64,000 nt of DNA from Candidatus Marinacidobacterales bacterium (GTDB lineage: Bacteria > Acidobacteriota > Vicinamibacteria > Marinacidobacterales > DATDRI01): positions 32,001 through 96,000 of the forward strand of contig CBDCNP010000001.1 of NCBI GenBank assembly GCA_965219415.1. The letters run 5' to 3'. The notes beneath the pieces were generated by a model. It saw only the letters and a list, made by a program, of their open reading frames with translations. It ran no database searches and was not told where the DNA came from. This document shows positions 11,251 to 36,811 of the stretch, piece by piece; the stretch's first letter is position 1; each line of letters begins with the position of its first letter. Both the position numbers and the translations under genes were made by a program.

Positions 11251-12361
11251 GGTGCTTCCGCCATCAAGTGTTGCTACGCGGCTGCGGGCAGTGGTACAGG
11301 TGCGGAAGAGACCGGGTTGCGCGCCCTACTGAGCAGGAAAACCTCGATCCGCGACCACAAAGGAATCGTCGTCGCCAAGAAGATGTCTCGAAAGGTGAGC
11401 CGTCGCGTGGTGAGACCGGCCTGCATAGCCGGAGTTCGGATCTCACGTCCGAACTTCAGAGCTCCGTGCGGTCGGACGAAGTTGTAATAGCAACGGAGCA
11501 ACTCCAGATGCTCATCGAGCCTCTCCGTCGAGCGAGCGTGGGAAAGCGTTCGTCTCGAAAGGTATGCCGAGCTTTGCCGGATGGTCAGATTCAACCGCTC
11601 GATGAACGACGTGTTCATCGTTCCTGCGCGTTTTTAGGACCTGGCCGTAGAGACACGCTGGACCGAAGAAGCGACGGATGACCTTCTGGTAGAATTCGAA
11701 TCCATCCGTGACGATCAAGGGAAGACGCTCGAAATTCATCCGCCTCGAAAGGTCGCGAAACAGAGCGTGAGTGTTCCGGTAGCTTCGCCTTCCCGTCACC
11801 GTCGATGGCCAGAGCCGAGACCAGACCTCGATCGTAACGAAGACCCAACTCGGCGTCTTCTTGTTGCCCGCGAACGTGCGAATCTCGTCGGCTTGAAGCT
11901 CTTCGGCAGCGAAGCCCGCGATCCTTCTGTGATTGAATCGACGACACACTTGGGCTGCCTTCTCGAGCCAGCGGGCGACGGTGTTCCAGGCAATCCCTTT
12001 GATCCGGGAAATCGCGGAAATGCTGACACCCTCGACTCTGAGAGCGATGACCCCATCGAAAGTAGCTCTTCGATGTTGGAGACGGTAGTAGGGCGTGCCT
12101 TTCGTCGAGGAGAACGTCTTTCCGCACTCGCCGCACCGGTATCGACGGCGTTTCCCGGACCTCGTTCTGTAGAATCCGTGGCGAACGATGTTTCCGGAAC
12201 TGACTTTGCCCCGCAACGGACATGCGAGATTGAGACATCTGCGATTCTTCACTTTGGCTCGGCCCTGACGATGAGAGAACTGTGTCTTCGGAATTCTGGT
12301 TCAAACTCTAGCACGCAGACCGGTTAGGGGCTGGCCGCCAACACTTAATTGCGGAAGCACC
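11251..12361 (-). mobile_element. IS1-family element with about 89-bp internal deletion
   Basis: TIRs GGTGCTTCCGC; near-identical to 35612-36811 except for a deletion near 11615. Confidence 0.9.
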
Positions 12362-28905: not shown

Positions 28906-29022
28906 GAGTGGCCTCCTTGCTACACGGTACAACCGTTCCCTGTCAAGCTGAATGTCGTCGACCCGCGTCAGATGGCATCTTGGTCGGCCTGAGTATCCGG
29001 CCGCGGTTATTGAAGTCGGAAC

Positions 29023-29188
29023 GGTGCTTCCGCCATTAAGTGTTGGTGAGATGACGCTAAGACTTTACGGTGCATTAAATTACAGCCAAAATGGCGCTCA
29101 CGACCTTCGCCGCGCGCTAAATGGAGCTTAAGCGCCTCTTTTGCAAAGGGATACGTACACATCACCAACAGCAAACAGCGCAAGCACC
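29023..29188 (+). mobile_element. MITE F copy
   Basis: Matches 6848-7013. Confidence 0.9.
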
Positions 29189-29568
29189 AAGACCGGAACA
29201 TCGACCAGCCGGAAGAAAGTGCGGTTTCCGAACCCGTCCTGACGGACGATGGCAAGCCCCTCCGGCATTGGCTCCTCGTCTCCGCCGGAGTCGTCGGGAT
29301 TCCTTTTGTCGTGGGGATCGTCCTGTACTTTCTCCTTACTGGCGGAGGTATCGACGAGACCGGGGAGGCTCCCGACGCACTTGAGGCGCCGACAAGCACC
29401 GTGGCAGAGTCGGCTGCGCCACCGTCCGGCGAGACGGAAGCTCTACCCGAGGCGGCGCCGATCGTTCTGCCACCGCTGTCCACCAGCGATGACTTCGTCC
29501 GCGCGATAGTCGAGAAGCTCTCCGCACATCCCGTGCTGGCGTCGTTTGTGGTGACCGAGCAGCTCATT
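29189..29568 (+). pseudogene. DUF3014-like membrane protein fragment
   Basis: TM helix then LPPLSTSDDFVRAIVEKLSAHP; bounded by IS1-like ends on both sides. Confidence 0.55.
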
Positions 29569-29809
29569 GGTGCTTCCGCAATCAAGTGTTGGCAGCAGAT
29601 GCCTAACCCGTTCGTGTACTAGAGTTTGAGCCTGATTTCGAGAGACTCAGTTCTTTCGGCGATGCCGGCTGGGCTGACGATGCGGTGCCTTACATTCAAG
29701 GACATCTTCGTGTGCACGCCGACATCCTTGTTAATGGCGTTCGAAGACACAGGCAGGACAACTAACACTGGTATTCAAACGCGGCTTAGCAACATATCTG
29801 GACTCCTCT

Positions 29810-30124
29810 AGTCAAGCCCCTTTCTTTCTAGTCACGCCCCTTTCTTAATAAATCTTCCATCGAAGCTGCGCATCCATCGCGTCGTGACGAGTGGGTCAGA
29901 CTGCAAACGTATCTTCGGCCTCAGTGAGGAGCGTCTTGGGTGCTCCGGGCCATGATGGAAAATCCGCGCGCGAGGAGCCAATCACTTTGAACGACCTCTT
30001 AGGGCCAGTGTTGCTATTGGCTTGACCCCGCGCCGGTCCGACCGGTACGCCATCAGTTGGATGGGTATCGTCGCAGCCTCTTTTGGAAGGGAAAAAGGAA
30101 AACACGAAAGTGGAGCCTCTAAAT
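29810..30124 (-). ncRNA. bridge/seek RNA region of the IS1111-type element
   Basis: Target guides at 30007-30016 and 29983-29987 inside stem AGCCAAT/ATTGGCT; donor guides at 29953-29960 and 29908-29914. Confidence 0.75.
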
Positions 30125-31156
30125 CTAAGCGGCCACCGGCGACTGGAATTCACTCTCGCGGGTGGAGACGGCCCAGACGATCCGGGCGAGTTTGTTGGCG
30201 ACAGCAATCACGGCCTTGTTGTGTCCCCGCGAGCGGTGGACCTTCCGAGCCCAGGCGCGGAGCTTGTCGGGCGGGCTCTTGCTGACGTTCGCCGCGCGGA
30301 GCACGGCGCGCCCGCCCTGGGTGAGGAGCATACGGAGGTAGGAGTCGCCACGCTTGGTGATGCGTCCGAGGCGGCGAATGTCGCCACTGGAGTTTTCCTT
30401 GGGAACTAGGCCGAGGTAGCTCGAGAAGCGGCGCCCCGATGGGAAGCGGCGAAGATCGCCGACGAAGCCCACGATGGCGGTCGCGGCCAGAAGTCCGATG
30501 CCGGGAATGGCGAGAAGTCGTTGGACTTCAGGAAGCTGCTTGGTGAGCGCCTTGAGCTCGTGCTCGATGCTAGCGCACTTGTCCTTGAGTTCTCGAATCT
30601 CGGAGCAGGCATCACGGAGATGCGAACGGAGCACGTCGGGCAAATCAGAATCAGCGTCTTCGACGAGTTCGAAGAGGGCGGGCACGACGAAGTGAGCGCC
30701 CTTTGGGATGATGAATCCGAGTTCGCGCAGGAGCCCGCGTACGGCATTGATGCGTGCGGTCCGTGTGGAGAGCCATCCTGAGCGCAGGCGATGGAGCGCA
30801 GCGAGGGTGTGCTGGTGCACGGACTTGATGGGTACGGGAAGAAGCTCCTCGTTCCTGTAGGCCTCGAGCAACGCCTTCGTGTCGGCGCGGTCGTTCTTGC
30901 TCCCGCGTCGATACGGCCTCACGAGGTGAGGTGGGAGCAGGACGACGTCGTGTCCCAACCTTCGGAACGTCCTTGCCCAGAAGTGAGCCGAGCCGCAGGC
31001 TTCGAGAAGCACGGTGGCAGCGCTCTGTTTGGCAAAGAACGACACCAATTTGGGTCGACTCACACGGAGTTGCTTGGACACCTTCCCCGCTTCTCCCGAG
31101 ATGGCAATCTCGAAGACGTTCTTTGCAAGATCCACAGCGATTGTCGTATCTTTCAT
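30125..31156 (-). CDS. IS110-family recombinase/transposase
   Basis: IAVDLAK, LEACG, KNDRADT (DEDD), IPGIG, GLVPKENSSG. Confidence 0.95.
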   Translation of the reverse strand: MKDTTIAVDLAKNVFEIAISGEAGKVSKQLRVSRPKLVSFFAKQSAATVLLEACGSAHFWARTFRRLGHDVVLLPPHLVRPYRRGSKNDRADTKALLEAYRNEELLPVPIKSVHQHTLAALHRLRSGWLSTRTARINAVRGLLRELGFIIPKGAHFVVPALFELVEDADSDLPDVLRSHLRDACSEIRELKDKCASIEHELKALTKQLPEVQRLLAIPGIGLLAATAIVGFVGDLRRFPSGRRFSSYLGLVPKENSSGDIRRLGRITKRGDSYLRMLLTQGGRAVLRAANVSKSPPDKLRAWARKVHRSRGHNKAVIAVANKLARIVWAVSTRESEFQSPVAA

Positions 31157-31257
31157 TTGGACTCCTCCTTTTCGATGCGTATTCGACTGACTTTGGCACA
31201 TCGATGCCGTCTATGTCAGTGGAGGAGTCCATTCCATCACTTGATAGCGGAAGCACC

Positions 31258-31451
31258 AGACAGCGCGAAATGGAGTCGTGCATCGAACTTGGAACTGTTT
31301 CAATCCACTCCCCCCGCCGAAGCGAGGGGAGACGGCAAGTATTCCGACTCAATGTCACCGGGGGCGGAGAGTTTCAATCCACTCCCCCCGCCGAAGCGAG
31401 GGGAGACAACAAGTCATTCCGTTCCCGTCAACGCCACGTGAGTTTCAATCC
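31258..31451. CRISPR. CRISPR array fragment: two full 37-bp repeats, two partial repeats, three spacers
   Basis: GTTTCAATCCACTCCCCCCGCCGAAGCGAGGGGAGAC at 31297-31333 and 31371-31407; partial AGAC 31258-31261 and GTTTCAATCC 31442-31451; spacers 35, 37 and 34 bp. Confidence 0.9.
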
Positions 31452-32030
31452 CGTCCTGTGCCAAAACTCGGCCCTCTTGAAATAGCCGATAAATCAGCAG
31501 CTTAGCGTCTGTGTTTTGCGACGGTGCCAAGGGCTGTGGGCTTTACAATCGTCTGGCCCGAGGGTGTTATCTTCGGATCCATCATGACGTACCATGTGCA
31601 AATCCTACTGTTGGTCAGGCAGCCGTTGTTCGATCGGGCAGCCCTGCTGCTCACACAGACCTCATGGGTGCTTCCGCCATTAAGTGTTGGTAAAATGACG
31701 CTAAGACTTTACGGTGCATTAAATTACAGCCATGGTCTTTCAAAAGGGCCGAGTTTTGGCACAGGACGGGGTCCCGGTCGTGGATGAGGTATCGCTTGCC
31801 AAGGAGGAAACCATCCCACAGGTCAGTGAGGTTTCTTGCCACCTGCTTCATCCACTCCCCGTTGGGGTCCGACGTTATCCCACCGATGCACACGCAGCGG
31901 GTGGCGATATCGATGACAAACAGGACATGGTAGCGGACGAGCCCGAACGGGTTCACAACCTCGACGGTGAACAGGTCTGTCGCAGCGGATAGCGCCCGTC
32001 GTGTCCAAAAACACGAACGAACTCACGACC
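31452..32030. mobile_element. pile-up of A end, partial MITE F, A end, A-transposase fragment and B end
   Basis: Termini at 31452, 31667, 31768, 31997; 31769-31992 matches 23720-23945. Confidence 0.8.
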
Positions 32031-32099
32031 TCGGGCCTTTGGGAAAGTGCAAACTGCTGACCCGCTGGGCGTTCGAGTATTTGGACCAGACGAGATCGA

Positions 32100-33142
32100 G
32101 AGCAGCGACGGAGTCTACCGCTAGTCTTCCAGAGCCCGTTTCGTGGCGGCGAGATTCTTCTCGTGCCCGATCACGACCAAGGTATCTCCTGCGCTCAGTG
32201 CTTGCTCCGGCCCAGGGTTGAATACCATCTTTCCGTCGGTAGGTTTGACAGCGCGACGACCGTAACGCCGAAGCTCGTGCGCAAGTCCGCCTCGCCGAGG
32301 CTTCGCCCCGCGATTTTGGCGTGTTCACCGATACGCGCCTCACCTAGGTTTATCTCAAGCGTGGCTCGGTCGGCGACGTGGTCCATGAACTGCAGAATCG
32401 TCGGAGCCATCGCCGCCTGAACGATTCGATGGCTCGCGAGCCGGTACGGGGAGAACACCTCGGTCGCACCGGCGCGACGGAGCTTCAGCTCACCACGCTC
32501 GTCGAGCGTCCGCGCAATGATGCGCACGGACGGGTTTAGCGCCTTGGCCGTCACCGTGACGTAGAGGTTGTCGGCATCCGAGGGGAGTAGGGCAAGGACG
32601 GCGGCGGCCTTCTGGACGCCGGCGTTGAGGAGAGCCTCGTCCGACGTCGCGTCCTCCAGAAGATACAGGTAACGAAGCTCCCGGAGCGTCGGCTCTCTCG
32701 AAGCGTCCGACTCGATGATGCAGAACGGGTGGTTCTTATGATCGAGATCCTCGGCGACGGACCTCGAGAAACGGCCGAACCCACACAATACGTAGTGATC
32801 GACGAGTTCGTTCAGCTCTTTCCGCATTCGTCTCCTTCCTAGGTTCCCAAACAGCTCTCCCTCGAGGACGACCTGCCCCAGTTGGGTGAGCGTATAGATG
32901 GACAACGAGAGCCCCCCTACGATTAGAAAGCTCGCGAAGAGCTTCCCGGGTGCCGAAAGGGGTTGCACTTCGCCGTATCCCACCGTGGAAATTGTGATTA
33001 CCGACATGTAGAGGGCGTCTGTCCAACGCCAGCCTTCGATCCAGGCGAAGCCCAGTGAGCCTACGAACGTCCAGATCAGCATCGCCATCACGCCGATGAC
33101 AAGACTGCGCTGGGTCCATTCGATGCTTCCAGCAGACTTCAA
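32100..33142 (-). pseudogene. TrkA/RCK-gated potassium channel, frameshift near C-terminus
   Basis: TISTVGYGE, HYVLCGFGR, DADNLYV; the RCK-C end continues in another frame. Confidence 0.8.
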
Positions 33143-35611: not shown

Positions 35612-36811
35612 GGTGCTTCCGCAATTAAGTGTTGGCGGCCAGCCCCTAACCGGTCTGCGTGCTAGAGTTTGAACCAGAATTCCGAAGACACAGTTCTCTC
35701 ATCGTCAGGGCCGAGCCAAAGTGAAGAATCGCAGATGTCTCAATCTCGCATGTCCGTTGCGGGGCAAAGTCAGTTCCGGAAACATCGTTCGCCACGGATT
35801 CTACCGAACCAGGTCCGGGAAACGCCGTCGATACCGGTGCGGCGAGTGCGGAAAGACGTTCTCCTCGACGAAAGGCACGCCCTACTACCGTCTCCAACAT
35901 CGAAGAGCTACTTTCGATGGGGTCATCGCTCTCAGAGTCGAGGTTGTCAGCATTGCTGCGATTTCCCGGATCAAAGGGATTGCCTGGAACACCATCGCCC
36001 GCTGGCTCGAGAAGGCAGCCCAAGTGTGTCGTCGATTCAATCACAGAAGGATCGCCGGCTTCGCTGCCGAAGAGCTTCAAGCCGACGAGATTCGCACGTT
36101 CGCGGGCAACAAGAAGACGCCGAGTTGGGTCTTCGTTACGATCGAGGTCTGGTCTCGGCTCTGGCCATCGACGGTGACGGGAAGGCGAAGCTACCGGAAC
36201 ACTCACGCTCTGTTTCGCGACCTTTCGAGGCGGATGAATTTCGAGCGTCTTTCCTTGATCGTCACGGATGGATTCGAATTCTACCAGAAGGTCATCCGTC
36301 GCTTCTTCGGTCCAGCGTGTCTCTACGGCCAGGTCCTCAAGACGCGCAGGAACGATCGTATCATCAAGGTCGAACGGAGAGCGCTGCACGGAGCCGCGTG
36401 GCGATTCGAAGACGCGCTCAATAACTCCGAGGACTCCTCAACATTGAACACGTCGTTCATCGAGCGGTTGAATCTGACCATCCGGCAAAGCTCGGCATAC
36501 CTTTCAAGACGAACACTTTCCCACGCTCGCTCGACGGAGAGGCTCGATGAGCACCTGGAGTTGCTCCGTTGCTATTACAACTTCGTCCGACCGCACGGAG
36601 CTCTGAAGTTCGGACGTGAGATCCGAACTCCGGCTATGCAAGCCGGTCTGACCACGCGACGGCTCACCTTTCGAGACATCTTCTTGGCGACGACGATTCC
36701 TTTGTGGTCGCGGATCGAGGTTTTCCTGCTCACTGGGGCGCGCAACCCGGTCTCTTCCGCACCTGTACCACTGTCCGCAGCCGCGTAGCAACACTTGATG
36801 GCGGAAGCACC
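35612..36811 (+). mobile_element. intact 1200-bp IS1-family element, single-ORF transposase 35721-36788
   Basis: 23-bp TIRs; Zn ribbon, HTH, ADE..TDG..IER DDE motifs; no TSD. Confidence 0.92.

Follow-up and report, generated by a model that had tools for sequence, protein, structure and literature searches.

The window, a stretch of 64,000 nucleotides from a 'Candidatus Marinacidobacterales' genome (C2:32001–96000), carries on its minus strand an IS1111-type insertion sequence of the IS110 family, which is inserted in a terminal inverted repeat (TIR) of a MITE; two copies of a larger, IS1-like element with the same type of TIR lie elsewhere in the window (Table 1). The transposase, whose longest open reading frame begins at 31201, matches the Pfam domains PF01548 (DEDD_Tnp_IS110, N-terminal, RuvC-like; 7.8e-12) and PF02371 (Transposase_20, C-terminal; 3.4e-24) as well as the NCBIfam model NF033542, 'IS110 family RNA-guided transposase' (3.4e-90). 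Its C-terminal domain contains the segment GLVPKENSSG, an instance of the GL-P----S(t)G motif that is described as a trait of the IS1111 group (Siddiquee et al., 2024, PMC11187229). With 97–99% of the query covered, the protein is 45.9% identical to that of ISPa25, 38.2% to ISEc11, 33.7% to IS4321 and 32.9% to IS5075.

Table 1. Features of the element, its guide RNA modules and its host elements (positions in the window)
Feature	Position	Strand	Basis or remark
Host MITE body, with the other TIR starting at 29569, interior to the insertion point	29569–29792	+	TIR pairing
IS1111-type element (IS110 family)	29793–31239	-	both 2-bp core copies included
Sub-terminal inverted repeat of the right end (RE), GAGGAGTCCA	29799–29808	-	4-nt extension GATA (29798–29795) after it; kept in relatives
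Donor-binding module	29905–29964	-	apical stems 29951–29916; alignment, structure, antisense match
Target-binding module: basal stem, internal loop, apical hairpin	29976–30022	-	MFE fold and consensus structure of the alignment
Transposase, 343 aa from the ATG at 31157	30125–31157	-	ribosome-binding site AGGAGGAG precedes the ATG
Sub-terminal inverted repeat of the left end (LE), TGGACTCCTC	31222–31231	-	6-nt extension ATGGAA (31237–31232) before it; kept in relatives
Outer 18 bp of the split host TIR	31240–31257	-	TIR search
Shortened 1111-bp IS1-like copy	11251–12361	+	empty target 11266–11276
Uninterrupted 1200-bp IS1-like element	35612–36811	+	ORF 35721–36788; empty target 36786–36796

The gene is preceded by about 80 nt and followed by 332 nt of non-coding DNA (30124–29793). 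At 9–10 bp, the sub-terminal inverted repeats fall within the range of 7–17 bp given for IS1111-group elements in one account (PMC11208160), while another gives 11–13 bp as usual (PMC11187229). Outside these repeats, the left extension measures 6 nt and the right one 4 nt, to which a shared core of 2 nt is added, a count that shifts with the assignment of the core. We read this core as TG in transposase orientation (CA on the plus strand), with one copy at the RE junction (29793–29794) and one at the LE junction (31238–31239); on the plus strand, the left flank reads ..TAGCAA-CA and the right one CA-CTTGATAGCGGAAGCACC. The domains, the full-length similarity, the 3′ non-coding region and the sub-terminal repeats agree in assigning the element to the IS1111 type, as had been proposed in an original prediction made from the letters of this DNA.

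A scan of 29700–31330 returned no sigma-70-like promoters and two terminator-like sites, which lie on the wrong strand and do not rise above the level of shuffled sequences. The ends of the element show two further peculiarities. At the LE, the sub-terminal repeat (GGACTCCTCC, 31230–31221) and the ribosome-binding region shortly before the transposase start (GGAGGAGTCC, 31172–31163) are exactly complementary, and this complementarity is kept in relatives; in read-through transcripts, such pairing could mask the ribosome-binding site. Next to the RE repeat, on its inner side, a unit of ~20 nt is duplicated in tandem in the window's clade (29826–29865, minus strand), while it is single in relatives of 98% identity, and two copies in the window's own genome are also one unit short.

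The host elements were defined by their TIRs. With up to two mismatches, the outer 18-mer occurs 454 times in the genome (8.05 Mb, three contigs), and over 23 bp the TIR is conserved in every one of its variants. Two hosts are delimited by paired TIRs, a 1200-bp IS1-like element and a MITE of ~245 bp. The former is present in 29 uninterrupted full-length copies of 94–100% identity and has one ORF of 355 aa, which matches the NCBIfam IS1 family model NF033558 (2.4e-23; 83 bits, below the cutoff of 100), NF050000 for the IS1/IS1595 zinc domain (7.5e-4) and Pfam PF03400 (DDE_Tnp_IS1; 1.1e-4; 23 bits, below the cutoff of 24.1). We consider the name 'IS1-like' fair, since the match to the IS1 family is clear, albeit below threshold, and is accompanied by the IS1/IS1595 zinc domain. 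No target-site duplications are visible at 51 such elements. The two ends of the 1200-bp element differ beyond position 23, and the sequence TTGCTA is confined to the end that follows the ORF, whose stop codon supplies the TAG of the target. In the window, the host with its insert spans 29569–31257 (C2:61569–63257), and its 1689 bp correspond to a ~245-bp MITE plus the element. The original prediction had thus placed the element correctly in a TIR of this family, but the right end of a full IS1-like element, which it had assumed as the host, is in this copy the end of a MITE. As for the preferences of the hosts themselves, several IS1-like ends adjoin one and the same sequence (..GTCCTGTGCCAAAAC..; 31441–31956 in the window), which codes for part of an rve-type transposase fragment, and the IS1-like elements may in turn favor a site within yet another, third insertion sequence.

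A BLAST search of the genome with the element returned 36 segments, among them 26 full-length copies (99.3–100% identity), four near-complete and four partial ones. Rather than lying at unrelated sequences, which would have spoken against the targeting proposed in the original prediction, 29 of the 30 complete or near-complete copies share one site: ..TAGCAA adjoins the RE and the outer 18 bp of the TIR adjoin the LE, the insertion point lies 20 bp inside the 23-bp TIR, and the orientation never varies. Past the outer 18-mer, the DNA next to these 29 copies is unrelated, with different outer flanks in every case. The exception (C3:5105454–5106900) is inserted in a TIR of another subfamily, referred to as TTGG-type in the following. 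Empty targets that match exactly (TAGCAACACTT) are present in both IS1-like copies of the window, on the minus strand in the shortened and on the plus strand in the uninterrupted one, at the places that had been predicted; with up to one mismatch, five target matches compare with 0.32 expected. Comparison with the empty sites shows that nothing but the TG is shared, without any duplication beyond this core.

The preference for one TIR subfamily is pronounced. TIRs that read TG-TTGCTA are occupied in 29 of 110 cases (81 empty), whereas those that read TG-TTGG(T/C)N are occupied in one of 295 (294 empty), which corresponds to an odds ratio of 105 and a Fisher p of 4e-17; the p value overstates the case, because TIRs are related repeats rather than independent trials, but the contrast itself is large. 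Both subfamilies have the outer 23 bp in common and differ where the inner part of the 5′ guide, described below, would read.

Such a distribution might also arise by passive spread, with the element being carried along inside transposing IS1-like or MITE composites or in segmental duplications, without targeted insertions of its own. Composites of uniform size do occur (ten of ~1690 bp and three of ~2645 bp), and as 22 of the 23 TIR positions survive the insertion, a composite might still be able to move. However, the near-identity of the element copies is not matched by their surroundings: the adjoining IS1-like segments have only 91.5–98.1% identity with the reference copy, at least three sequence types are represented among the inner flanks, and no two outer flanks agree. 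Near-identical elements in diverged hosts indicate that the insertions were independent events in hosts that had already diverged. As passive spread would also leave the covariation of guides and flanks in relatives unexplained, we regard it as very improbable. Apart from these copies, the only members of the family that we detected in the genome are two distant IS110-like fragments with 27–31% identity. Two truncated copies (C3:4572943–4573069 and C3:4907569–4908289) end at the same foreign sequence, a hint that the IS1111-type element is in turn entered or cut by another element.

Targeted insertion directs attention to the 3′ non-coding region, which as a whole folds with a z-score of -3.3. 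In the MFE fold, the two segments that match the target face each other across an internal loop, between a basal stem AGCCAAU/AUUGGCU (AGCCAAT at 30022–30016 and ATTGGCT at 29982–29976, minus strand) and an apical hairpin. The 5′ loop guide, TAGCAACACT (30016–30007, minus strand), is complementary to the top strand over the core and the inner part of the TIR, while the 3′ loop guide, AAGUG (AAGTG in the DNA; 29987–29983, minus strand), has the sense of the outer part of the TIR and the core. That guide segments for both halves of the target are embedded in this stem was part of the original prediction, and the fold bears it out; the positions it had assigned to the stem and the short matches also proved correct on re-reading. 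A match of 10 nt between the 332-nt region and the 22-bp target arises in just three of 1000 dinucleotide shuffles; the 3′ target guide, on the other hand, is only 5 nt long, which counts against RNA guidance. In transposase orientation, the segment complementary to the top strand precedes the one complementary to the bottom strand, and this is the order described for seekRNAs of the IS1111 family, the reverse of that in the IS110 type (Siddiquee et al., 2024, PMC11187229). The location in a long RE likewise corresponds to what is reported for bridge RNAs of the IS1111 group (Durrant et al., 2024, PMC11208160). In the alignment with relatives, the core complement of the window's 5′ loop is separated from the apical stem by one position more than that of the relatives L047 and L078, which likewise counts against RNA guidance.

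Public data were considered as well. An Rfam scan of 29000–32500 at E ≤ 1 yielded no matching family, but only a chance match to a miRNA. Parts of the stretch are contained in 20 of 24 listed public runs; four were examined, as contigs, and three of these are RNA or possibly RNA libraries, whose contigs touch parts of the element, but hold no information on transcription, strand or ends. No joint of RE and LE was listed for the four runs examined. A single contig from an RNA library has a different sequence for ~100 nt across the guide loops, as might be expected of a relative whose guides differ.

A second stem and internal-loop module, situated between the target module and the RE, matches the ends of the element itself. 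Its 5′ guide, UUCCAUCAU (29960–29952, minus strand), given as TTCCATCA at 29960–29953 in the original prediction, is a 9-nt antisense match to the core and the LE. Its 3′ guide, AGAUACG (AGATACG; 29914–29908, minus strand), has the sense of the RE followed by a CG core, and agrees with RE and core in six of seven nucleotides in the window, in seven of seven in a clade of 93% identity and in seven of seven at the CG-core RE junctions of distant relatives. The single mismatch in the window had been recognized before, yet it is not a random one: AGAUACG is invariant in most of the family, where it is a perfect match to RE and CG core, so that the CG is a conserved trait. Where the RE changes, the guide does so too. 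It reads AUAUA in all four relatives whose RE ends in CCATATA, thereby following the RE, and AGAUAUG in the 93% clade, which has the TG-core target of the window. From these changes, we conclude that the donor 3′ guide covaries with what it should read.

Elements with 92–98% protein identity are found in several 'Candidatus Marinacidobacterales' MAG records. Across 401 genomes of the phylum, 36, including the one studied here, gave matches; this search provided 18 elements with 46–62% identity (L078–L095), and a separate search one with 46% (L064). Both stem and internal-loop modules are conserved in relatives throughout the range of 46–98% protein identity, while the loops change along with the flanks. 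When 16 non-redundant elements are aligned over the stretch that precedes the RE, a conserved scaffold with hypervariable loops emerges. In the RNAalifold structure of these 16 relatives, 94.7% of the cells are paired, compared with 29–41% when the partners are slid against each other; compensatory changes occur in six of 25 pairs, and none of 500 shuffles reached the covariation score.

The guides were further compared with the flanks of their own elements. For the 5′ guide against its own core and flank, the summed longest match is 73, compared with 40.5±5.1 after permutation (0 of 20000; 11 guide classes), and for the 3′ guide against its own flank, it is 48 compared with 37.2±3.1 (30 of 20000; 13 classes). 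The close relative L047 (90.6% nucleotide identity) occupies an unrelated site, which its 5′ loop matches over 9 nt. There are misfits as well: the guide of L093 matches the flank of L085 over 10 nt and its own over 4 nt, and in L095, L088 and L079 the longest match between guide and flank is 4. In four other relatives (L082–L084 and L091), the element is inserted 10 bp inside the TIR of a MITE-like element of ~170 bp with ~25-bp terminal inverted repeats (L113:1500–1665, genome G178), an unrelated second TIR target in the clade; of the four genomes searched for this TIR pattern, one has it a single time and the other three between 8 and 51 times. In sum, the notion that the 3′ RNA carries segments for both target and donor, put forward in the original prediction, agrees with the published order of the guides and with their covariation with the flanks.

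These comparisons also bear on the possibility that the site is recognized by the protein alone, the matches in the 3′ region being due to chance or having some other role. The Rfam result and the contigs of the public runs could be read in its favor. But the permutation tests, the retargeted L047 and the rarity of the 10-nt match among shuffles are all at odds with it, and for ISEc11, ISKpn4 and ISPa11, the experiments described in PMC11187229 found the RNA to be required and reprogrammable. We therefore give recognition by the protein alone hardly any chance.

It is very probable, in our view, that this is an active or recently active IS1111-type element, whose 3′ bridge/seek RNA directs its insertion into the TIRs of the IS1-like element and the MITE. 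Its insertion is specific in site and orientation, the RNA scaffold is conserved, and the guides covary with the flanks; by analogy with published work on relatives, the RNA is presumably made, bound by the recombinase and directs the reaction. The 3′ non-coding region would encode a bridge/seek RNA of two modules. The target module would pair with both strands of the site inside the 23-bp TIR, one guide reading the core TG and TTGCTA on one strand, the other AAG and TG on the opposite strand, while the donor module would pair with the joined ends of the element. At the TG, a DEDD/serine recombinase would then integrate the circular form, and the orientation would always be the same. Since the guide would read three bases, CTA, the complement of the IS1-like transposase stop codon, which mark one TIR subfamily, only that end of that subfamily would be targeted.

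The cores at the junctions of the distant relatives (L078–L095) are not uniform. Outside the window's own target group, the LE junction reads TG in 15 of 18 and the RE junction mostly CG; empty sites have CG in eight of eight cases in one genome (G309) and in 17 of 18 in another (G178). In these relatives, three of the four guides read CG, the exception being the donor 5′ guide with TG. The states of LE junction, RE junction and empty site are seen together in G309 only. For one IS110 element, a preprint proposes that only the top strand is exchanged and that the product is fixed by replication (bioRxiv 10.1101/2025.10.25.684509). Considering the TG at the LE, the CG at the RE and in empty sites, and the corresponding difference between the donor 5′ guide and the other guides, the junctions of this clade might be a natural footprint of such top-strand-only transfer, together with a 'split' specification of the core in the guide RNA, a possibility that we offer tentatively and with considerable doubt. 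If it were true, genome sequences alone could tell the transferred strand across the IS1111 group.

Several copies are followed by one to three extra modules in tandem, both in the genome studied here (C3:3315125–3316855, G000) and in relatives (L031, L039, L040, L056 and L043–L046). Each extra module comprises the 3′ non-coding region, with both guide modules, up to the RE, and at its junction the RE and 2 nt are joined to an internal site of the element, in some cases a target-like one (for example TG-ATTGCT inside the transposase gene). Two origins suggest themselves, either insertion of the element into itself at pseudo-targets with subsequent collapse, or modular circles of the kind described for ISPpu9 (PMC12288879). 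A repeat of a different kind lies close to the element in the window, where two exact 37-nt direct repeats (31297–31333 and 31371–31407) are separated by a 37-nt spacer and a partial third one (31442–31452) runs into an insertion sequence fragment; contigs of two public runs join other sequences at the repeat. The arrangement resembles what is left of a CRISPR array after mobile elements have cut into it.

What the insertions mean for the hosts is a separate question. According to the original prediction, the element is a hyperparasite, which disables the ends of the IS1-like element; that family would thereby be limited. The position inside the TIR in 29 of 30 copies and the 5′ truncation of 11 of the 15 occupied IS1-like copies could be taken to support this view. 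Against it, the new outer end retains 22 of the 23 TIR positions that are conserved across all subfamilies (TG-ATG for TG-TTG), only position 21 being changed because the LE begins with ATG where the TIR has TTG, and the IS1-like ORF remains unbroken, as the insertion follows its stop codon. Nor is truncation significantly more common in occupied copies, with four of 15 occupied and 29 of 58 unoccupied IS1-like copies being full length (Fisher p = 0.15), and there are 81 empty TIRs of the target type, which also speak against it. For IS5075 in Tn21-type TIRs, the term 'safe harbor' has been used (PMC8269217). We consider the disabling of host ends unlikely and the claim to that effect unsupported in the form given. 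The insertion behind the stop codon, the single changed TIR position and the lack of a significant excess of truncation point instead to a landing pad of low cost, and the TIR is most likely just that, an abundant and harmless or nearly harmless one.

REP-like repeats are common targets of IS1111 elements, and IS4321 and IS5075, going by the title of an earlier report, are said to target the TIRs of Tn21-family transposons. That IS5075 sits in Tn21-type TIRs is also stated in PMC8269217. TIR targeting by IS1111 elements is hence already known, and what is added here is a new example, with this element in the TIRs of an IS1-like element and a MITE. Like IS4321 and IS5075, it is of the IS1111 type and occupies one position in one orientation inside the TIRs of another transposon family; unlike them, to which its protein is only 33.7% and 32.9% identical, it resides in the 23-bp TIR of an IS1-like insertion sequence and a MITE of an acidobacterial genome rather than in a Tn21-family TIR, and its guide discriminates between TIR subfamilies within one genome. 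Our search for IS110-family elements aimed at the TIR of another insertion sequence, or acting as hyperparasites, found nothing beyond IS4321 and IS5075 in the main texts and the minority of subscription journals covered, and supplementary target logos or bridge-RNA tables may already list similar TIR targets.

With ISEc11, ISKpn4, ISPa11 and ISPa25 and their seekRNAs, as described in PMC11187229, the element shares the 3′ non-coding region, the sub-terminal inverted repeats, a transposase of ~340 aa with the GL-P----SG motif and the guide order, with the top-strand match on the 5′ side. Close relatives that differ naturally in their targets are ISEc11 and ISXne4 in that account, and the window's element and L047 here. 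It differs from that set in its sequence (45.9% identity at best, to ISPa25), in its sub-terminal repeats of 9–10 bp, as opposed to the usual 11–13 bp, and, depending on how the core is assigned, in its extensions of 6 and 4 nt plus a 2-nt core, as opposed to the stated 7 (or 6) and 3; the targets given in that account are REP sequences, attC or short linear sites, whereas here it is a TIR. The IS621 bridge RNA (Durrant et al., 2024, PMC11208160; Hiraizumi et al., 2026, PMC13626964), as presented in these papers, likewise has target and donor modules with internal loops, each of which reads both strands around a 2-nt core. In contrast to IS621, the RNA would here be encoded in the right end, 3′ of the gene, with the guide order reversed, the core is TG or CG instead of CT, and Rfam holds no matching model for it.

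The element does not alter our knowledge of how such elements work, but it adds, from an acidobacterial lineage that is uncultured, a well-resolved natural example of one transposon being targeted to another by an RNA guide. Its genome contains a built-in specificity experiment, with ~110 cognate and ~295 near-cognate sites that differ only at guide positions 4–6 and are occupied at a ratio of 29:1, and together with its relatives it supplies a natural retargeting pair as well as a compensatory change in a donor guide. The suggestion in the original prediction that the guide, target and donor form a tool candidate is speculative. These sets of guides, targets and donors could seed bench work on the guide rules of IS1111-type elements, which are less studied than those of IS621.
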